This document shows, piece by piece, positions 22,721-32,856 of a stretch of 64,000 nt of DNA. The DNA comes from Escherichia coli (GTDB lineage Bacteria > Pseudomonadota > Gammaproteobacteria > Enterobacterales > Enterobacteriaceae), in the NCBI RefSeq assembly GCF_030013595.1, contig NZ_CP122768.1; one strand, written 5' to 3'. The notes under the pieces were generated by a model. The model was not told where the DNA came from and did not search any database. It saw only the letters and a list, made by a program, of their open reading frames with translations. Each line of letters begins with the position of its first letter. Position 1 is the stretch's first letter. The position numbers and the translations under genes are program-made.

Positions 22721-23482
22721 TCACCGCATGACCAGGCCGCCATCGATAACGATGGTCTGGCCGACAATGTAGCTGGACGCAGAGGAACTTAAGAAGACGA
22801 TGGTGTTCGCCACTTCTTCACATTTCCCCAGACGGCGTAACGGGATGGTACTGGTGACCGCACGGACCACTGCGCGGGATACTTTTTTCACCATTTTCGA
22901 TTCAATCATTCCCGGAGCGACCGCGTTGACGCGCACGCCCCAGGGTGCCATTTCTGCTGCCAGCGTGCGGGTGAAGCCGAGGATCGCCCCTTTTGACGCA
23001 CTGTAATTCGCCTGACCGACGCTGGGGATCAGCGCTGCAATAGAGGCAACGTTAATAATGGCGGGATTTTCTGCCGCACGAAGCAGCATCAACGCGTCTT
23101 TCGTCAGCCGGAAAATGCTGAACATGTTGGTTTCGATAACCTGGGTGAAATCCTCATAGCTCATCGAGGCAAACAGGCTGTCTTTAACGATGCCCGCGTT
23201 ATTCACCAGCACATCAATCTTGCCAGCTTCGCGCTCTATCTGTTCGCACAATGCGCTCACGCTCTGGGGGCAGGCGAGATCGCACTGCACAATATGCAGT
23301 TTATCGCCTGCTGGATGGCTTGCTTTCAGCGCCGTTAATTGCACGTCGTTGGATTTATAGAGCGCATAAACATCGCAGTTCTGCTCCAGATATTTTTCGC
23401 AAATACCCAGTCCAATATCACCACTGGCTCCTGTCACCAGTACGGTTTTTTCATTTAAATCATTATATTTGTACATATTCAT
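22721..23482 (-). CDS. Short-chain dehydrogenase/reductase, 3-oxoacyl-ACP reductase-like (FabG-like)
   Basis: Rossmann VLVTGASGDIGLGI, NNAG, catalytic YSASKGA (YxxxK); ORF extends to 23518 but internal Met avoids overlap with upstream PPTase gene. Confidence 0.75.
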   Translation of the reverse strand: MNMYKYNDLNEKTVLVTGASGDIGLGICEKYLEQNCDVYALYKSNDVQLTALKASHPAGDKLHIVQCDLACPQSVSALCEQIEREAGKIDVLVNNAGIVKDSLFASMSYEDFTQVIETNMFSIFRLTKDALMLLRAAENPAIINVASIAALIPSVGQANYSASKGAILGFTRTLAAEMAPWGVRVNAVAPGMIESKMVKKVSRAVVRAVTSTIPLRRLGKCEEVANTIVFLSSSASSYIVGQTIVIDGGLVMR

Positions 23483-23495
23483 CACATATGTTGAG

Positions 23496-23876
23496 TTAAT
23501 AAACGATGACAGTCGCAATGGCGTGGGTACGGCAATGCGAAATACTCAGGGAGTTATTTTGCAACCCCTGCCCGATAAAAATTTCTTGTAGTCTTCCGGA
23601 AATAACGAAATAAGGTGCTTTGGCCGCATCATGCTTTATTTCAATATCCTGGAAACGTACGCCATCACGAAAACCACAACCAATCGCTTTAACTAACGCT
23701 TCTTTCGCTGCCCAGAATCCAGAGGCCCGTTCATAATCAGGTTCTGCAGGGTTAATGAGTAAGCGCTCATGAGCAGTATAAACACGCTCATAAAAAGCCA
23801 TCTCTCCATTAATAATGGCTTTGGTTATTCTGGCAATTTCAACAATATCTGTCCCTATTCTCATTAATCTCGTCAT
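23496..23876 (-). CDS. 4'-phosphopantetheinyl transferase, AcpS-type holo-ACP synthase (126 aa)
   Basis: N-terminal [10 protein letters not shown] and [10 protein letters not shown] motifs characteristic of AcpS. Confidence 0.75.
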
Positions 23877-23879
23877 CCT

Positions 23880-25499
23880 TTACATTTGGTACGAAAAATT
23901 AAAATTCACATTCACCCGATCAATATCTAATGTCGCCGGATACTTTAATGGGGTAGAAACGGAAAAGTTATACTCAAGACTTTTAATGTTTCCATCAATA
24001 CCAACTGCCGCGCCCATCAGTGATTCATCGCCATAAGAAGCGTCCTGATACACTTGCCCAAAATCAAGACCGGCATAATAGTTAGCTTTCATTCCAGGCA
24101 AAGGAAATGCCAGCGTATTTTTTATATAAAAATCATCATTCCCTGACAAACCTACGCTATTTTCAAACCCGCGAATACTCCAACGATCGCCAACTGTAAT
24201 TTGATCTTGCAAAGTCAGTTCACGCGGTGCGTACTGGGCAAAAAAAGCAGTATTGTAATATCCATTCTTTATTTGTCGGGTATAGTTACCCTCAAAATTA
24301 AAGATATTGCTTACCGGGCTAACGTCGCCATATTGCATATCTGGCGTTTTTTCACCACCGAACCAGGTTAAAAAGCGTTGCCACGAGAGGGTTGAATCCC
24401 AGAACGCGTCGGGTAACTGTTGCTTATAATTTAGTCCCAGTTTGATATTTCCCATATCCCGCGCCTGTAATGTCAGCTCCTCACCATTAAGCGTGTAATT
24501 CGACTTTCGACGAATGAGTTCTGCACTACCGGCGAATTTTTTTGTTTTATCGCGATAAACGGTACGCGTCGCCTTTGCGCTCAAGTATTCGCTGGTGCCA
24601 ACATAATCCAGCGAGATGTACGAAAGCGGAATCACCTGCTGCGATTTACTTTTGCTATAGAAAAAGCCGTACTCCCAGTAACCCACCGGAATGGAATAAT
24701 AACTACTGACGTTTTCATACTGTCCTGTAGTACTACGCGTACCGGCGAGATAAAACAGATCCCCCATTTTCGCTGGATTAAACAGATAACCCACCGCGGT
24801 TGTCTGGTAACGGCCCGTTTCTTCATCGCCCCAATTGTTGTAACTTGCCCGAACGCTCCAGTTTTTCCCCCGGTGTGTATCAATATGAACGACGCTATAA
24901 CCATCCCGTGTTCCCGGTTCAATATTAATTTTCACATCAACGTCAGGTACTCGCTGAAGATTTTCCAGCCCCTGTTCAATATCGCGAATATTGAGAATAT
25001 CGTTACGCTGAAAAGGTAACATCCATTCACTGATGTCATTACCTTCCACAATCGTTTTTTCTATCTTCCCGGCATTAACCTGGAAACGTAGCTTGCCTTT
25101 AGAAATATCCTGCGAAGGGATACTAATTCGCGTTGTGATATATCCGGCATTAATATAATAATCCTGCAAGGCAGCAGCAATTTTTTGCACACCAGCACTA
25201 CCGACACAACGTCCGGCAATCGCTTTTTGCACTTCAGAAATCAACTGACCACCCAGAAAGTTATCTTCCAGTTCTACCCGATTAATGATAAAGCAATTCT
25301 TTTCCTGCGGCAGATCACCCAGAGTAAACGCATCACGTTGTGCATTTGAGTAAACATCTTTTTTTTCTAATTTATGCGCGCGTAACGTGCTTTCATCTGC
25401 ATTTTTTTGCTGCTTGATCAAATGATCAAGACTGTCTTTCGCTGCAACCTGAAAACAACAAAGAATGAGCAGCAAACCAAAATTAAATCGTAAGTGCAT
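23880..25499 (-). CDS. Two-partner secretion outer-membrane transporter TpsB (ShlB/FhaC family, 539 aa)
   Basis: Signal peptide, POTRA-like N-region, beta-barrel with C-terminal ...NFNFSYQM; gene adjacent to TpsA-like exoprotein. Confidence 0.75.
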   Translation of the reverse strand: MHLRFNFGLLLILCCFQVAAKDSLDHLIKQQKNADESTLRAHKLEKKDVYSNAQRDAFTLGDLPQEKNCFIINRVELEDNFLGGQLISEVQKAIAGRCVGSAGVQKIAAALQDYYINAGYITTRISIPSQDISKGKLRFQVNAGKIEKTIVEGNDISEWMLPFQRNDILNIRDIEQGLENLQRVPDVDVKINIEPGTRDGYSVVHIDTHRGKNWSVRASYNNWGDEETGRYQTTAVGYLFNPAKMGDLFYLAGTRSTTGQYENVSSYYSIPVGYWEYGFFYSKSKSQQVIPLSYISLDYVGTSEYLSAKATRTVYRDKTKKFAGSAELIRRKSNYTLNGEELTLQARDMGNIKLGLNYKQQLPDAFWDSTLSWQRFLTWFGGEKTPDMQYGDVSPVSNIFNFEGNYTRQIKNGYYNTAFFAQYAPRELTLQDQITVGDRWSIRGFENSVGLSGNDDFYIKNTLAFPLPGMKANYYAGLDFGQVYQDASYGDESLMGAAVGIDGNIKSLEYNFSVSTPLKYPATLDIDRVNVNFNFSYQM

Positions 25500-25587: not shown

Positions 25588-28500
25588 TTACATGCCGACA
25601 ATAGTACCGGTGTTATCAGTTTCGTTTGCTTCTAACGCTAAACCGTAGAAGCCACCGAGAACAGCGTCTTTACCGCTATTCGTAACCTTATTTGCCGATA
25701 CGCCAGCGACACCATAACTCAGCATATTGAGGTAGTTATAAATATTACCGGTGGTCTTAACCCCCAGAGAATAATCACCCACAATATTTCCACGGTTATT
25801 AATGTCATTCACGGCATTGATCGCGATGGTTTGCCCCAACATATTACTGTTGCTGTTGTTGGTAACATACTTCTGCGTATCAATAGTCAGCGCAGTTCCC
25901 GCCACAATGTCTTTAAAGTTCTCAACACCGTTCAGGGCATTAATGGTCAGCGCGTTGTCCGCTGCGATGGCATTACGGTTATACAGCGTGCCTTTCAGAA
26001 CATTGAAATGCACATCCCCTTTACCGCTGATCCAACCATAGTTCGTGACGCTGTTATCCACGTTCAGATCCAGGTTTTTGTCAGACGCAATCACGCCCGT
26101 GGCGGTATTGTCTTCCAGGCGACCATCGCTGGCGTTGTTCAACGACGCCGCATAAACGTCGAGATTACCGGCGCTGTAAGTGGTGGCATAGTTGTTGTAG
26201 AACATACCAGCCGCACGGATGATGGCATCAGCCCCACTGCTAAGAAGCGCGCGGGTATTATCCAGCGTTCCCCTGGACAGCAGATTAAGCGGACCATTTT
26301 CAGCGATGATGCTGCTGTTATTGTTGTAGACGTTCTGAGCAGAAAGCGTGACACCTTCTTTACCTACGATGCCGCCAACGTTGTCGGTAATTCCAAACAG
26401 CGCGCCGTTATTACGCAGGAAGTTATTCCCGTCGCGGTTTTCGAGGTTGCCGCCAGCGTTAATAACCAGCTTTTTATTCGCCGCGATCAGCGCAGTGTTG
26501 TTATAAATCGTCGATTTAGCATCGACAGAAACATTCTCACCGGCAATCAGACCATAGGCGTTGTCTATGATGTTTGCTGTCAGAGTCACGTCGCCCGTTT
26601 CAGAGGTCAGCGAGCCCTTAAAGCTGTCGTAGTTGCCCGTCAGTGCCAGCGTGACATCGTCATAACCACGAATTTCACCGTAGTCGTTGTTCAGATTGCT
26701 GCCTTTTACAGACAACACGCCGTTCAACGCATGCAGATTACCGCGGTTGTTACCCACGTTGCCCTTCGAATCGATAATCAGATCGCCTGTCGCTTCGATG
26801 GTCGCGTTATTGTTCGCCACGCTATTTGCCGTTAATGCGACATCCCCATAACCCACCATATAGAGATAGTTATACAGGTTGCCTTTGGTCGTCACGTTCA
26901 AGTCAGCGTCACTGACAATGTTGCCACAGTTGTTGATATCGTTAACCGCGTTAATAACGATATTCTGCCCCACCATATTGCTGTTGGAGTTGTTGGTCAC
27001 ATGGCGATTGGTGTTCATCGTCAGGTCGCCGCCAGCAGAAATATCCTTCCAGTTTTCAATACCGTTCAACGCGGCAATATCCAGCCCCTTTTCAGCCGCA
27101 ATGGTATTGCGGTTATACAGGTTGCCGTTATTCACCGTGACATCAACATCGCCTTTACCGCTGATCCAGCCGTAGTTGGTAAGGCTATTCACCACTTCCA
27201 GTGACAGATTTTTATCAGATGCAATAAACCCGGTCGCATTGTTATCGATCATCGTACCGCTGCTGCTGTTTTGCAGCGTGGTCGCGTCGATATCCAGGTT
27301 GCCCGCACTCCAGGTGGTAGCGTAGTTGTTGTAATACGTTCCGCCAACTTGAATAGATGCATCCGCCCCGCTGGTGACCAGAGCACGCGTGTTGTCGAAC
27401 GTGTTCTGTGCCTGGAGAGTCAGAGGACCATCCTCAGCGATAAGACGACTGTTGTTGTTATAGATGTTCTGCCCGGAAAGCTCGATGCCTTCCTTGCCGA
27501 CCATTCCACCCGTTTGCTGAGGCATGCCGAAGTACAGACCATATGCATTACCGAAGCTATTGCCATCGCGGTTTTCAATATTACCGAACGCGTTTATCTT
27601 CAGTTTTTTGCTGGCCACGATCAGCGCTGTGTTGTTATTGACGCCAGACATCGACTCCATCGTGATGTTCTGCCCCATCATGAAGCCGCCGTGGTTGTCC
27701 ACTGAGTTGGCTAACAGGGAGATATCACCCTCTTCAGAGCTGATCACGCCAATGTTATTGGTCAGGCTGCCGCCAACGGCGACTTCAATACCCTGCTTAC
27801 CGCTGATCCCCCCGGTATCGTTACGCAGTGAGCTTCCCTTGATAATCACTTTGCTGTTGGACAGAATTTTGCCCGCATAATCGTCGACCGTGCTGTAACT
27901 TGACAGGGAGACGTTGCCATTAGACGCAATCTGTCCGCCATTGTTATTGATGTTGTTCGCACCAATTTCTACGCCGGTATCTGCAATAATGCCCAGAGAG
28001 TCAGAACTGCCGGTATCGGCGGTTTTGGTTGAACCATTATTTACGCTACCTGCCGCACCAATAACGATATGCCCGGTGGAGGAACGGATCAGACCTTTGT
28101 TGTTATCCACATTACCGTTACTGATAATGGCGATGTCGCCAGTGGTCTGAATATCACCGTTGTTGTTATTCAACGCGCCTGATTCAAGCCCCACATAACC
28201 GCCTCGAATCTGACCATTGCTGTTGTTGAGCGTCCCGGTTTTCAGCGCCACGATACCCGCTTCAATCCCGACAGAACTCCCTTTACCAGAGTTAATCAGC
28301 GTGGCGTTATTGGTATCGACCGCCAGCATACCTGCTGCCGCAAGCTTGCCGTTGGTATTGTCAATCGTACCGCTGTTAACGTAGATATCGCCCATCGTAG
28401 AGATGTTACCCGCACGGGTATTCACGATAGTATTCTTGTTGGTATTGAGCGAGATAGTGCCTACAGATGTCACCGTACCGGTGGTGTTATCCAGAGTACC

Positions 28501-29400
28501 ATTTGTCGTCAGGTTGATCGTGCTTGCAGACTGAATCTGGGCATTGCTATTTAACAGGTTACCTTTGGAATCGATGCTGACACCATTAACACCCCCAGCA
28601 ATAACGCCGAGGTTGCGAACCCCTACACCTTTCTCGGTGCTAACCAGACTGATTTTGTTCGCATACATTCCGCCCAGTTTGGCAACATCTACGCTGTAAC
28701 CGTTACGGGAACCCGTGGCGGATACGCTACCGGTCACCTGGCCTGCGGCGTTAACATAGTTATTGCCAGCAACAACGTTCAGCTCATCGGCAGACACTTT
28801 GCCGTTAACCACCACGTTACGGGAAAGAATTTCTGTCGGGCTGGCGTTATCCAGTTTACCGAGCGTAATGGTACCGCCGTTCACGGAATAACCGGCCAGC
28901 TTGTCATCCTGGATATCCGGCGTCCCGGTGGTTAAGGTCAGTTTACCTGTATTGATTGAACCACCACCGTTTACAGTAATACCATTCGGGTTGGCAATAA
29001 TCAGATCCGCTTTATCCCCTGCAACTTCCATCATCCCATTAATGGTTGAAGGATTTTTGGAAGTAACCTCATTCAGGATCACCTTCGCCGACCCGGAGGT
29101 CAGATTACTGTTTCCCTGAATATTTCCGGCAAGTGAAGTACTGGATTCATTAGCGCTGTTATTGAAAACGACACCATTTTTATCAACGTTTAGGTTATCC
29201 CAGATATTATGAGATAAACCGCTACCGTTAGGTTTGTTGATGTCTACGACTGGCACACCATTGGCGTTATATACCGTTCCATTTTTTATGACTAATCCCG
29301 CCGCTTGAGAAGCTACAGGAAAAGACAACATCATAAGTATAGCAATAGGGGTTAATGCTTTACCCACCGTTGCTTCCTTACTTAAATTTATCATCGCCAC
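25588..29400 (-). CDS. TpsA exoprotein, filamentous haemagglutinin/haemolysin-like (1270 aa)
   Basis: Extended signal peptide; N-terminal TPS domain with ANPNGITVNGG and NPNGI-type motifs; long Asn/Gly/Thr-rich beta-helical repeats with internal ~1.13-kb duplication. Confidence 0.8.
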   Translation of the reverse strand: MAMINLSKEATVGKALTPIAILMMLSFPVASQAAGLVIKNGTVYNANGVPVVDINKPNGSGLSHNIWDNLNVDKNGVVFNNSANESSTSLAGNIQGNSNLTSGSAKVILNEVTSKNPSTINGMMEVAGDKADLIIANPNGITVNGGGSINTGKLTLTTGTPDIQDDKLAGYSVNGGTITLGKLDNASPTEILSRNVVVNGKVSADELNVVAGNNYVNAAGQVTGSVSATGSRNGYSVDVAKLGGMYANKISLVSTEKGVGVRNLGVIAGGVNGVSIDSKGNLLNSNAQIQSASTINLTTNGTLDNTTGTVTSVGTISLNTNKNTIVNTRAGNISTMGDIYVNSGTIDNTNGKLAAAGMLAVDTNNATLINSGKGSSVGIEAGIVALKTGTLNNSNGQIRGGYVGLESGALNNNNGDIQTTGDIAIISNGNVDNNKGLIRSSTGHIVIGAAGSVNNGSTKTADTGSSDSLGIIADTGVEIGANNINNNGGQIASNGNVSLSSYSTVDDYAGKILSNSKVIIKGSSLRNDTGGISGKQGIEVAVGGSLTNNIGVISSEEGDISLLANSVDNHGGFMMGQNITMESMSGVNNNTALIVASKKLKINAFGNIENRDGNSFGNAYGLYFGMPQQTGGMVGKEGIELSGQNIYNNNSRLIAEDGPLTLQAQNTFDNTRALVTSGADASIQVGGTYYNNYATTWSAGNLDIDATTLQNSSSGTMIDNNATGFIASDKNLSLEVVNSLTNYGWISGKGDVDVTVNNGNLYNRNTIAAEKGLDIAALNGIENWKDISAGGDLTMNTNRHVTNNSNSNMVGQNIVINAVNDINNCGNIVSDADLNVTTKGNLYNYLYMVGYGDVALTANSVANNNATIEATGDLIIDSKGNVGNNRGNLHALNGVLSVKGSNLNNDYGEIRGYDDVTLALTGNYDSFKGSLTSETGDVTLTANIIDNAYGLIAGENVSVDAKSTIYNNTALIAANKKLVINAGGNLENRDGNNFLRNNGALFGITDNVGGIVGKEGVTLSAQNVYNNNSSIIAENGPLNLLSRGTLDNTRALLSSGADAIIRAAGMFYNNYATTYSAGNLDVYAASLNNASDGRLEDNTATGVIASDKNLDLNVDNSVTNYGWISGKGDVHFNVLKGTLYNRNAIAADNALTINALNGVENFKDIVAGTALTIDTQKYVTNNSNSNMLGQTIAINAVNDINNRGNIVGDYSLGVKTTGNIYNYLNMLSYGVAGVSANKVTNSGKDAVLGGFYGLALEANETDNTGTIVGM

Positions 29401-30790
29401 TAACGTTTTCCTTATTGATGCTATTCATTTTGGACATGCAGATCACTTTTGATGACTCACGGAATATCAGCAAAAATGATTGCGGCAAATCCTATCACCT
29501 GGCGCAATAAAAAATCATGAAAAATAAGCTGAAATAAGGACTCAAAAAAACAACTAAGAGTTATTGTTTTTTCATCGAACGGCGAAGTACCTAACTTACT
29601 AAAACACAATAATTTAAAAGTCCCCCATCCTTCCTCCTTGGGTGAAAAAAATCCATTTTAGAGGATGTCTGAAATGATATGTAGTTTTCTGTACGACATC
29701 ATTTCAGACATCCGAATAAAACAACAAATTTGATGAGTTACAATTAATTTAAATCTTGTTATTTGATTAACAAAGCATCATCATTACTGCATCTCATTCT
29801 CTATATCTTTTACGTCGGGGTAGATTCTTTATGGTCATTACGGGCAGGCGACATTTCATTATATTACCACTTTCATTCACACTTGTAACCCTTAAGAGTT
29901 ATATAAAAAGGAAATAGTTCTTGCTCATGGTATTACTGAGATCGGATTAACCATGAGGTTAGCTATATAGAGAACTTTGGCTTTGCGACAATTGGCTTAA
30001 GCAGCCACATTATGCCTGGCTTATCGTTGAAAGGGAGAAAGAAGAGCAAAACGGTTTGGCAAGCTTTCATTCCCATCTAATAGCAATCACCGCTATACAT
30101 CATCCCTTAACGTACTCTGGCCTTCATAAAAATGTTATTCTAAATTAAAGATTGTAATGATTTTAATAATATTGTTATTATTTTGCAACAAATCAATCTA
30201 ACACAATGATTATTAGCGATTTTTTATTAGTTAAGAGAAATTGTTTTTACAGATTGAGCTACAATTCCGCTCATTTTTCACCACAGGAAAAGCTGAAGTA
30301 ATCTTAAATGACTGTATTAACCCTTTTCTCCGCTGCCAGCACTCTTAAATATCGTTGTTCTATTGTTATAAAAACAGCTTTTTTGACATAAAAAGTAATA
30401 GCTAAAGCCATTATGTAGCACTTCCAACCTGAATAGACCGCAAAAAACAACCCTATACAGAATAAAACTCTGTTCATCATCTTTCGGTAAGAATTAAATT
30501 ACTATATTACCGTTCAACATCAGTATGAATGAAAATTCAATTGTTATACATGTGATGAATGTCATATATTGTGCTCATCGATTGCAGGACATCGCTATTC
30601 TTTTAGAGATACAGATATCACGCTGTTACTCTCTGTATAAAGCACACGCAAAGATTAGTTGTGTTACTGCAGTTGTTATGTCGCATATGGAAAGCCCATT
30701 GTTACATCTTTAGTAAAAAGTTTTATTCACTTTCAAAATTTTTACTCCATGAAGATGGGCTGTTTTGCTGCAAGCAATTGAGTTAGTGCA
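29401..30790. promoter_or_regulatory. 1.39-kb AT-rich divergent control region between the TpsA operon and the fimbrial operon
   Basis: No credible ORF; very AT-rich; contains a perfect 16-bp inverted repeat at 29663-29713. Confidence 0.5.
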
Positions 30791-31414
30791 ATGAACAAGA
30801 ACTTACTAACAAGGGTAATTATCATTTCGGATGATCTATATTACCTTCAGGGATTAAGTGCAAAACCAGGTAACCATTATCGTTTTTTTATTGAGTGTTT
30901 TTTTTGTTCTCAAAATGCATGTAATAATGACCTAAGTACACTTAGATTTGATAACCGCTTTACCAAAAACGTACTTCTTGTCGCAGTGGATGACGTAAGT
31001 ATACTTGCAAAACTGCCAGATTTGGCCAGGTTTTTAATGATTGTTTCACTCAGACAGATGAAAAACAGAAATATCTTCTTTTCACTTTCAGAGCAAACAT
31101 TCATTAGCCGATATATAAAATTGAATAAACTCATTACTTTGATTAAAAGTACTGATAAAGACCAGCAAGTCAGACAGGTGACTCTGACAAGGTATGAGTG
31201 GGATATCTATTACTTATATTTTAAGATAGATAACAAAAGAATATTGCACACCCTGCTAAAAAAGGATGTCAAGTACATTAGCCACTATAAAATATCGGTT
31301 TTCAACAAGTTTGAAATTGCTTGTGATAGTGATGGCTTTTACATTTTCAAGGCACTTATACAGTTAAGGAGATTTACCGGTTTTAAAAACGTCAGATTGT
31401 ATCAATTGCATTAA
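30791..31414 (+). CDS. Hypothetical protein upstream of fimbrial operon (207 aa), possible operon regulator
   Basis: AT-rich ORF with low-GC codon usage, no signal peptide; position immediately 5' of major pilin gene. Confidence 0.4.
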   Translation: MNKNLLTRVIIISDDLYYLQGLSAKPGNHYRFFIECFFCSQNACNNDLSTLRFDNRFTKNVLLVAVDDVSILAKLPDLARFLMIVSLRQMKNRNIFFSLSEQTFISRYIKLNKLITLIKSTDKDQQVRQVTLTRYEWDIYYLYFKIDNKRILHTLLKKDVKYISHYKISVFNKFEIACDSDGFYIFKALIQLRRFTGFKNVRLYQLH

Positions 31415-31456: not shown

Positions 31457-32017
31457 ATGTTTTCTACTTTCAAAAAAGCAGCTCTGCTGGCAGCTATCGC
31501 ATTACCTTTTTCTACCATGGCTGCACCGACAGTCACTTTTCAGGGTGAAGTAACCGATCAGACCTGTTCCGTAAATATCAACGGTCAAACCAATTCAGTA
31601 GTATTGCTGCCGACCGTAGCCATGGCTGACTTCGGTGCAACTTTAGCTGATGGCCAGAGCGCAGGCCAGACGCCGTTTACGGTTTCTGTGTCTAACTGCC
31701 AGGCTCCGACTGGTGCAGATCAGGCAATCAACACCACTTTCCTGGGCTACGACGTGGACGCTAGCACGGGTGTTATGGGAAACCGTGATACCAGCAGCGA
31801 CGCGGCGAAAGGCTTTGGCATTCAGTTAATGGATTCCAGCACTTCTGGTAACCCAGTAACTCTGGCTGGCGCGACTAACGTACCGGGTTTGACCCTGAAA
31901 GTTGGCGATACTGAAGCCAGCTACGACTTCGGTGCGCGTTACTTCGTTATCGATAGCGCAGCTGCCACTGCCGGTAAAATTACCGCTGTCGCAGAATACA
32001 CCCTGAGCTACCTCTAA
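31457..32017 (+). CDS. Chaperone-usher fimbrial major subunit (186 aa)
   Basis: Signal peptide MFSTFKKAALLAAIALPFSTMAAPTVTFQGEVTDQTC, conserved pilin Cys pair, C-terminal ...AEYTLSYL donor-strand-type end. Confidence 0.8.
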   Translation: MFSTFKKAALLAAIALPFSTMAAPTVTFQGEVTDQTCSVNINGQTNSVVLLPTVAMADFGATLADGQSAGQTPFTVSVSNCQAPTGADQAINTTFLGYDVDASTGVMGNRDTSSDAAKGFGIQLMDSSTSGNPVTLAGATNVPGLTLKVGDTEASYDFGARYFVIDSAAATAGKITAVAEYTLSYL

Positions 32018-32081
32018 TTAATCTACTGGCTGGCAGTAAATGTCAGCCAGTATTTCTTCGCACAATTAATAGTGATTTTTC

Positions 32082-32804
32082 ATGGACATGGAAAAGATAA
32101 GAATGAACATTTTTGCATATTTACTGGTACTTGTATTTTCCATGAGCATGAGCAGCAGCGCGTTTGCCAGCGTGGTAATGACCGGAACCCGTATTATTTT
32201 CCCTGGTGACGCAAAGGAAAAAACCATCCAGTTGCGAAATACCAGCGATCAGCCCTATATCATTAATATCCATGTTGAGGATGAACGTGGTTCTGACAAG
32301 AATGTACCGTTTATGCCAACCCCGCAGACATTTCGCATGGAAGCTGCCGCAGGTCAGGCGTTACGCCTGCTCTACACTGGTGATAATTTACCGCAGGATC
32401 GCGAGTCTGTTTTCTGGTTTAGTTTCAGTCAACTACCTTATCTGAATAAGAACGATAAAAGTCAGAACCAGCTCATCCTGGCCCTGACTAATCGAGTCAA
32501 AATTTTCTATCGTCCCAGCTCGATTATCGGTAAATCCAGTGACGCGCCAAAAAACCTGACTTACCAGGTAAAACAGAACCGCATTGAAGTGACGAATCCC
32601 ACGGGCTATTACGTCGTGATTCGCGCCGCTGAACTGCTTAATAACGGTAAAAAAGTCCCCCTCGCGAATTCCGTCATGATTGCACCTCAAAGCACAACTG
32701 AATGGACACTACGCTCTGGCATCAGCGTCGCTCCCGGTGCGCAGATTCATTTAGTGACCGTCAATGACTATGGCGTAAATGTCACGTCTGAGCATGCCTT
32801 ATAA
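32082..32804 (+). CDS. Periplasmic fimbrial chaperone (PapD-like)
   Basis: Signal peptide then VVMTGTRIIFPGDAKEKTIQLRN (PapD-fold N-domain motif); start may be internal Met at 32103. Confidence 0.8.
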   Translation: MDMEKIRMNIFAYLLVLVFSMSMSSSAFASVVMTGTRIIFPGDAKEKTIQLRNTSDQPYIINIHVEDERGSDKNVPFMPTPQTFRMEAAAGQALRLLYTGDNLPQDRESVFWFSFSQLPYLNKNDKSQNQLILALTNRVKIFYRPSSIIGKSSDAPKNLTYQVKQNRIEVTNPTGYYVVIRAAELLNNGKKVPLANSVMIAPQSTTEWTLRSGISVAPGAQIHLVTVNDYGVNVTSEHAL

Positions 32805-32856
32805 GCTCTTTCCCCTTTTTTGAGCGGTATCCTTTTTCACGCACGAGTATGTCGAG

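Follow-up and report, generated by a model that had tools for sequence, protein, structure and literature searches.

A probably ancient in-frame tandem duplication in the shaft of OtpA, a two-partner secretion exoprotein of Escherichia coli

Since similarity between short coil motifs is usual in the beta-helix of TpsA proteins, the exoproteins of two-partner secretion (TPS) systems, an apparent internal repeat in such a protein raises the question of whether it is a true duplication and, if it is, how old and how stable. We address this question for otpA, a TpsA gene in a stretch of 64,000 nucleotides (nt) from E. coli (RefSeq assembly GCF_030013595.1, contig NZ_CP122768.1), hereafter the window, with all positions counted from its first letter. 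An earlier reading made from the letters alone (the sequence-only reading) had proposed an internal tandem duplication of ~1.13 kb in this gene and had suggested that repeat expansion could vary the length or the antigenicity of the exoprotein between strains. We find that the duplication is real and very probably represents the ancient doubling of a block of beta-helix coils in the OtpA shaft. Contraction to a single copy does happen, but it is rare, and the duplication is fixed in almost all otpA-positive strains.

Whole-protein self-BLASTP of OtpA returned the trivial self-match alone, and for this reason we relied on an offset scan covering every offset from 5 to 899 amino acids (aa) and on a split-sequence BLASTP of aa 481-898 against aa 899-1270. 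At offset 378 the best 100-aa window contains 70 identities, compared with 27 or fewer at all other offsets. Thus the self-comparison that the sequence-only reading had suggested as a check yields a single offset and not dispersed motif similarity. In the split alignment, aa 521-863 and aa 899-1241 are 58.6% identical over 343 aa without a gap (E 6.7e-131), which places the copies exactly 378 aa (1134 nt) apart. The upstream part of the beta-helix (aa 100-480), used as a control, matches the second copy with at best 28.5 bits over 40 aa. Because a gapless alignment at offset 378 stands against a 28-bit control, the similarity is that of a collinear duplication and not motif noise. At the DNA level, five independent repeat families within 25680-27814 are all spaced exactly 1134 nt apart; BLASTN at offset 1134 gives an identity of 66.9% over 827 nt, and in the gapless core the value is 64.9%. 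Tandem Repeats Finder, whose longest period is 500, missed the duplication. A collinear in-frame tandem duplication of ~1.13 kb inside the TpsA gene is therefore confirmed. The range first given for it, 25588-27900, turns out to be right to within ~60 nt, and the two peptides quoted as examples, aa 692-715 and aa 1070-1093, are exactly 378 residues apart. The homologous opposite-strand open reading frames (ORFs) that had been noted as ending at 26041 and 27175 are also present, both terminating in ...TSPLPLIQP and 1134 nt apart at their ends. We reject these plus-strand ORFs as real genes: they are shadows of a duplicated coding sequence whose sense frame is under purifying selection.

By domain content the gene encodes a typical TpsA protein. 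Pfam identifies the TPS domain (E 3.1e-41, 142 bits against a cut-off of 33.5) and haemagglutinin-type repeats (Fil_haemagg), NCBIfam identifies TIGR01901 adhes_NPXG (77 bits against a cut-off of 29.1) and the FHA-type 20-aa repeat TIGR01731, and the translation contains an NPNGI-type motif ('IIANPNGITV'). The adjoining otpB, annotated in RefSeq as a ShlB/FhaC/HecB family protein, matches the Pfam domains ShlB (E 4.6e-68), POTRA_2 (E 3.8e-16) and POTRA_3 (E 1.1e-13). OtpA thus combines a TPS domain, an adjoining TpsB and a predicted extended beta-helix passenger. The window gene is 97.5% identical to ECs_1282 of O157:H7 Sakai over 3813/3813 nt and has the same flanking genes, and this full-length near-identity with shared flanks identifies it as the orthologue. 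In Sakai, ECs_1283, the counterpart of otpB, lies downstream, a fimbrial operon is found on one side and acpS with the lipid-cluster genes on the other. The pair ECs1282-1283 was named otpAB in a preprint (bioRxiv 10.1101/2020.04.13.038984), which credits the characterisation of OtpAB as a two-partner secretion system to Choi et al. 2007 (Choi, Dawson & Bernstein, J Bacteriol 189:3452); TpsB-dependent secretion of O157:H7 OtpA is attributed to Choi et al. 2007 and Choi & Bernstein 2009 in the summary given by PMC5422565. Judged by its sequence, then, the ORF is the E. coli TPS exoprotein OtpA, and secretion of the window allele is predicted.

The gene is carried by 381 of 5426 complete E. coli genomes (7%), and one copy is plasmid-borne. 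The window carries a non-O157 allele, which differs from the Sakai allele (L002 3001-6813) by a synonymous divergence (dS) of ~0.09. For two E. coli strains this is a high value. Taken with the 7% presence and the plasmid copy, it points to an accessory island that is exchanged horizontally.

The two copies have been diverging for a long time. Between them, the proportion of synonymous differences (pS) is 0.75, which means saturation, and the nonsynonymous divergence (dN) is 0.28. Considering also the DNA identity of ~65-67% and the fact that the duplication is shared with Enterobacter and Aeromonas homologues, it appears to be ancient. Both copies are under purifying selection, since comparison of the window allele with that of Sakai gives a dN/dS of 0.09 for copy 1 and 0.11 for copy 2, and there is no sign of diversifying (antigenic) selection. 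The copies resemble each other least around the new internal junction (40% for aa 521-580 versus aa 899-958). Two conserved elements are distributed unequally between the copies. The motif YFGMPQQxGG, which follows a helix, is kept in single-unit relatives and, without variation, in copy 1 of every two-unit protein (aa 623-632 in OtpA, window 27505-27534), while its counterpart in copy 2 has changed to FGITDNVGG or similar. The tail VTNSGxxAVLGG...NTGTIVGM is found family-wide, in single- and two-copy homologues, and stands after copy 2.

What has been doubled can be described in terms of coils. The autocorrelation of the OtpA sequence peaks at 21, 41 and 61 residues, giving a coil period of 20-21 aa, so that 378 aa correspond to 18 coils of 21; by the same measure, indels of 21, 41, 85 and 163 aa amount to about 1, 2, 4 and 8 coils. 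An AlphaFold2 model of aa 441-1270, based on an alignment of 23 two-unit homologues, has a mean predicted local distance difference test score (pLDDT) of 95.1 and a predicted template modelling score (pTM) of 0.82. It is a single uninterrupted beta-solenoid with three short strands per coil, predicted to extend up to the final residue, and the pLDDT exceeds 90 throughout copy 1. The departures from the regular fold recur with the period of the duplication: the helices at aa 613-624 in copy 1 and aa 991-998 in copy 2 (model residues 173-184 and 551-558) start 378 residues apart, and so, exactly, do two non-strand loops at model residues 273-284 and 651-662. The rise of a beta-helix is ~4.8 Å per coil. 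Eighteen coils of this height would add roughly 9 nm of shaft.

The distribution of the duplication among relatives allows its history to be traced further. Among the 120 best database homologues of OtpA, two units are present in 37 and one in 83, and none has three. When 1.84 billion representatives were searched exhaustively by HMMER with copy 2 as the query, eight proteins were found at E<=1e-30, one of them with two units, and no protein outscored this two-unit representative, as a three-unit form would. The two-unit forms comprise the E. coli-like proteins of 1270 aa with a period of 378 aa, Enterobacter proteins of 1290-1292 aa with a period of 399-401 aa, a protein of 1288 aa with a period of 400 aa in Aeromonas veronii, and shorter derivatives of 1205 aa (period 314) and 1129 aa (period 238). 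Single-unit forms of ~814-935 aa occur in Klebsiella, Leclercia, Kosakonia, Mixta, Pantoea, Rahnella and others. These differing periods can be attributed to later indels. The 1205- and 1129-aa forms are 93-96% identical to relatives of 1268-1292 aa save for one gap of 85 or 163 aa, respectively, and a single gap of 21 aa, placed exactly at residue 898/899, separates the E. coli form from a 1291-aa relative. Other close relatives (P0034, P0037-P0040 and P0006) likewise differ by single clean gaps of 21, 41, 85 or 163 aa, and whole-coil indels appear to be the usual mode of length change in the OtpA family. In the 399-period form the two copies are similar over nearly their full length, down to the final 12 residues, which suggests that the segment first duplicated was roughly the final 400 codons of the gene.

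Against copy 2 of other lineages, that of E. coli shows 66-76% identity (76% for Enterobacter; 56% for Aeromonas veronii, the most divergent), but the values are only 63% for its own copy 1 and 43-59% for other copy-1 units. In a neighbour-joining tree of the units (numpy distances, 200 bootstraps), copy-2 units form one clade and the order of lineages is mirrored among the copy-1 units; the two-copy group lies within a clade of 100% bootstrap and is nested among single-copy outgroups. A single origin of the duplication is thus favoured, though not proven.

Within E. coli the duplicated form strongly prevails. The comparison of repeat number among strains, which the sequence-only reading had called for, revealed no class of length variants in complete genomes: the gene is at least 80% covered in 379 of the 381 that carry it, and in the 69 full-length matches listed (the 10 best and an even spread of 59 down the ranking) the span is 3813 bp in all bar one of 3812. 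Three alleles from draft assemblies are, however, exactly one period short: P0007 and P0008, of 892 aa each, and P0035, of 893 aa. All three are chimeras that begin as copy 1 and continue as copy 2, the switch falling at aa 670-685 in P0007, aa 600-615 in P0008 and aa 730-760 in P0035. Being chimeric with three different in-register junctions, the short alleles represent independent events and secondary losses and not the ancestral state. For P0008 the best breakpoint falls at gene nt 1822-1835, where the copies share 13 identical nt in register, TCGAAAACCGCGA; this allele is 98.9% identical to the Sakai chimera and is present in two sequencing runs (L005 and L006). The P0007 breakpoint, seen at loci L003 and L004, is at gene nt 2031-2036, where the identity is ~5 nt. 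The 892-aa alleles trace to the runs SRR24033007, ERR10491137 and SRR29490122. Nowhere do the copies match exactly in register over more than 17 nt. Stretches this short would not lead a k=31 assembler to a false join, so that misassembly of the short alleles is unlikely, and for the same lack of longer identity recombination between the copies is rare. When the 5426 complete E. coli genomes were screened with probes across the junctions of the deletion alleles, none contained an intact junction. The near-identical copies and the copy-number polymorphism among strains that define contingency-type repeats are not features of otpA, and the gene is probably stable because its copies have diverged so far. 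In the P0008 lineage, otpB is split into ORFs of 378 and 152 aa (L005 5466-7085, L006 4554-6173), and a gene for a GcvT-like aminomethyltransferase is split too (L005 9135-10294, L006 8223-9382), which suggests that the otpA locus is decaying in these strains.

Table 1. Coordinates of the features discussed, in window positions; residue numbers refer to OtpA
Feature	Window position	Strand	OtpA residues	Remarks
otpA, TpsA exoprotein gene	25588-29400	-		1270-aa ORF; GTG start; stop codon 25588-25590
TPS secretion domain	28555-29277	-	42-282	Pfam PF05860; outside the duplication
Repeat copy 1	26707-27840	-	521-898	strongly similar part aa 521-863 (26812-27840)
Diverged junction/linker of copy 1	26707-26811	-	864-898	from the offset-378 alignment
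Repeat copy 2	25591-26706	-	899-1270	similar part aa 899-1241
C-terminal tail, VTNSG...NTGTIVGM	25591-25686	-	last ~32 aa	family-conserved
P0008 junction, copy-1 side	27566-27579	-		copy-2 partner 26432-26445
P0007 junction, copy-1 side	27365-27370	-		copy-2 partner 26231-26236
otpB, TpsB outer-membrane transporter	23880-25499	-		539 aa; 88 nt downstream of otpA
Antisense shadow ORF inside copy 2	25802-26041	+		79 aa; not a gene
Antisense shadow ORF inside copy 1	26879-27175	+		98 aa; not a gene

Based on these data, we consider it very probable that the OtpA shaft contains an ancient in-frame tandem duplication of a beta-helix coil block, and its evolution probably ran as follows. The ancestor was a single-copy protein of ~890 aa, consisting of the TPS domain, a solenoid and the conserved C-terminal tail. 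It then gained a second copy of the C-proximal ~400 aa, or ~19 coils of 21 aa, after which the E. coli lineage lost one 21-aa coil at the junction, leaving the present period of 378 aa, or 18 coils. In the AlphaFold model both copies are predicted to form one uninterrupted three-stranded beta-solenoid. Since then, the copies have diverged to ~59% protein and 65-67% DNA identity, with both kept under purifying selection. The presumed outcome is a rigid secreted rod made longer by roughly 9 nm, on which the two surface excursions of each unit, the helix and the loop, are doubled. The ancestral YFGMPQQ would have stayed with copy 1 and the ancestral tail with copy 2, the newly created junction diverging fastest. 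Occasional illegitimate or short-homology in-register recombination may remove one period and so give rise to the chimeric 892-aa alleles.

Other explanations of the same data have to be weighed against this one. The periodicity of 20-21 aa is a real property of the protein, and distant parts of it do give weak 28-bit matches, which is what one would expect if there were no true duplication and the similarity were just the dispersed short motifs of a TpsA beta-helix. Dispersed motifs are nevertheless hard to reconcile with a gapless alignment of 343 aa at a single offset (E 7e-131), with 70 identities per 100 residues against a background maximum of 27, or with five DNA repeat families sharing a spacing of 1134 nt, and the chance that they explain the data is in our opinion negligible. 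If, on the other hand, the duplication were recent and unstable, or an artefact of assembly, it would expand and contract often and produce strain differences in length or antigenicity. The three alleles that have lost one period and the whole-coil indels common among homologues are in line with such instability. However, DNA identity of ~65-67%, saturated synonymous sites and a longest exact match of 17 nt are not what a recent repeat should look like; 379 of 381 complete genomes carry the full-length gene, with near-identical spans among those listed; contraction junctions went undetected in the 5426 complete genomes, no three-copy form was found, and dN/dS is ~0.1. We therefore find a recent or unstable repeat very improbable, and an assembly artefact is rejected outright, as hundreds of finished genomes share the same arrangement, which also makes the long-read validation suggested by the sequence-only reading unnecessary. 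Of the variation foreseen by the sequence-only reading, what remains is rare contraction, represented by the three alleles of 892-893 aa; expansion and antigenic variation are not supported, given that no three-copy form was found among the 120 best homologues or the 1.84 billion representatives and that dN/dS values are 0.09-0.11.

It could also be argued that a single-copy ancestor of ~890 aa underwent duplication independently in several lineages, giving rise to the periods of 378, 399-401, 314 and 238 aa. The lengths of the long forms (1270, 1290, 1205 and 1129 aa) do equal ~891 aa plus the period of each, the copy-1 units do not form a monophyletic group, some copy-2 units match E. coli copy 1 about as well (67%) as orthologous copy-1 units do, and the bootstrap of the copy-2 clade is 49%. 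Yet identity among copy-2 units of different lineages is higher (66-76%) than that between the two copies of one protein (52-63%), the forms with periods of 314 and 238 aa are recent deletions, 93-96% identical to their relatives save for the single 85- or 163-aa gap, and the 378 and 399 forms differ by one 21-aa gap located exactly at the junction. On balance, repeated duplication seems improbable. Several points weigh against a single ancient duplication and what it did to the shaft. The copy-2 clade has a bootstrap of just 49%, and instead of a clade the copy-1 units make up a grade. Five single-copy proteins (P0041, P0042, P0043, P0044 and P0045) nest inside the two-copy clade; they might be either pre-duplication forms or old secondary deletions. 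The diagnostic-column painting of single-copy homologues had 4 usable columns, and the segments of P0041 and P0043 are nearly equally identical to copy 1 and copy 2. The E. coli junction of ~38 aa (aa 861-898) has no significant similarity to either flank. The figure of ~9 nm comes from textbook beta-helix geometry and not from the coordinates of the model, for which a Foldseek search against the PDB gave no significant match (best EtpA, E 0.21), as is typical for long solenoids. Finally, the functional consequence of a longer shaft is something we can only infer, OtpA being listed as a protein of unknown function in a 2017 TPS review (PMC5422565).

The neighbouring genes may offer the best available clue to this function. 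The pair otpA-otpB is followed, in the same order in E. coli, Enterobacter mori and Leclercia as far as the loci extend, by genes for AcpS, a reductase of the short-chain dehydrogenase/ketoreductase (SDR/KR) type, a FabZ/ApeI-like dehydratase, an acyl carrier protein (ACP), a GcvT-like aminomethyltransferase and ketosynthases, namely an 852-aa double ketosynthase and a further one (window 9071-25499, minus strand; L007 11964-19873; L008 10719-18661). In E. coli the cluster goes on with an ABC ATPase, an FtsX/MacB permease, a LolA-like protein, a FabD-like acyltransferase and several unannotated ORFs, and most cluster proteins have no specific NCBIfam family. The upstream neighbours of otpAB are unrelated across the three genera. 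From this gene order, otpAB and the lipid genes seem to move together as a single module. Upstream of otpA in the window lies a non-coding region of ~1.4 kb (29401-30790) with 32-34% GC versus ~50% in the gene; AT-rich composition of this kind is typical of horizontally acquired, possibly silenced promoter regions. It is followed by an ORF of 207 aa (30791-31414), divergent from otpA and without a Pfam or NCBIfam match, and by a chaperone-usher fimbrial operon at 31457-35379 and beyond.

It is tempting to go one step further and speculate that the doubled block is a slow length switch of a secreted rod whose role is tied to the neighbouring lipid genes. OtpA does occur in discrete lengths of 892 and 1270 aa, besides whole-coil variants, and otpAB is linked to the same lipid/polyketide-type genes in Escherichia, Enterobacter and Leclercia; the lengths would interconvert through in-register recombination. 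If OtpA handles, displays or delivers the product of the cluster, the length of the shaft would set its distance from the outer membrane, and OtpAB would be the first TPS system with a functional link to a dedicated lipid pathway. We regard this idea as doubtful.

The ancient duplication of a coil block matters in more immediate ways. OtpA is among the few experimentally studied TpsA proteins of E. coli and has been used as a model in the study of secretion kinetics. For the design of truncations, antibodies or structural work it is useful to know that the C-terminal 750 residues consist of one 18-coil module in two diverged copies, that natural one-module alleles of 892 aa exist, and that copy 1 carries the family motif and copy 2 the family tail. 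The OtpA family also provides a clean natural example of how a beta-solenoid changes its length, by one large block doubling and then by whole-coil indels. Frequent antigenic or phase-type variation is not supported by the otpA data.

As to known systems, the locus is the same as OtpA/OtpB of E. coli O157:H7, with the same gene, the same neighbours and the same order of tpsA followed by tpsB. The protein is thus already known, and its doubling is an ordinary event for solenoid proteins and not a new mechanism; no description of the internal duplication was found in the literature searched, the primary OtpA papers being outside that scope. OtpA resembles CdiA in its TPS domain, its beta-helical FHA-type shaft and its TpsB partner, and one homologue, P0061, is labelled 'tRNA nuclease CdiA-2' by its source. 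The gene order, however, is A-B in otpAB and B-A-I in CdiA systems, and we reject a CdiA toxin for OtpA: Pfam and NCBIfam find only the TPS domain and haemagglutinin repeats and no annotated pretoxin or toxin domain, the model of aa 441-1270 is solenoid up to its last residue, the next genes are otpB and then acpS with no immunity gene, and the C-terminal tail of ~32 aa is family-conserved, not variable. Filamentous haemagglutinin (FHA/FhaB) of Bordetella, built of R1/R2 coil repeats of 19-20 residues, is like OtpA in having a TPS domain followed by a right-handed beta-helix with coils of ~20 aa. EtpA of enterotoxigenic E. coli (structures 8vbb and 8cpk) is the top Foldseek match to the OtpA model, with a template modelling (TM) score of 0.28 at the E value given above, which is not significant. 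The repeat unit of OtpA is confined by its sequence to a narrow family, represented by the 8 proteins retrieved from 1.84 billion representatives. Compared with FHA and EtpA, OtpA is much shorter, and its shaft contains one doubled 18-coil block in place of a long array.

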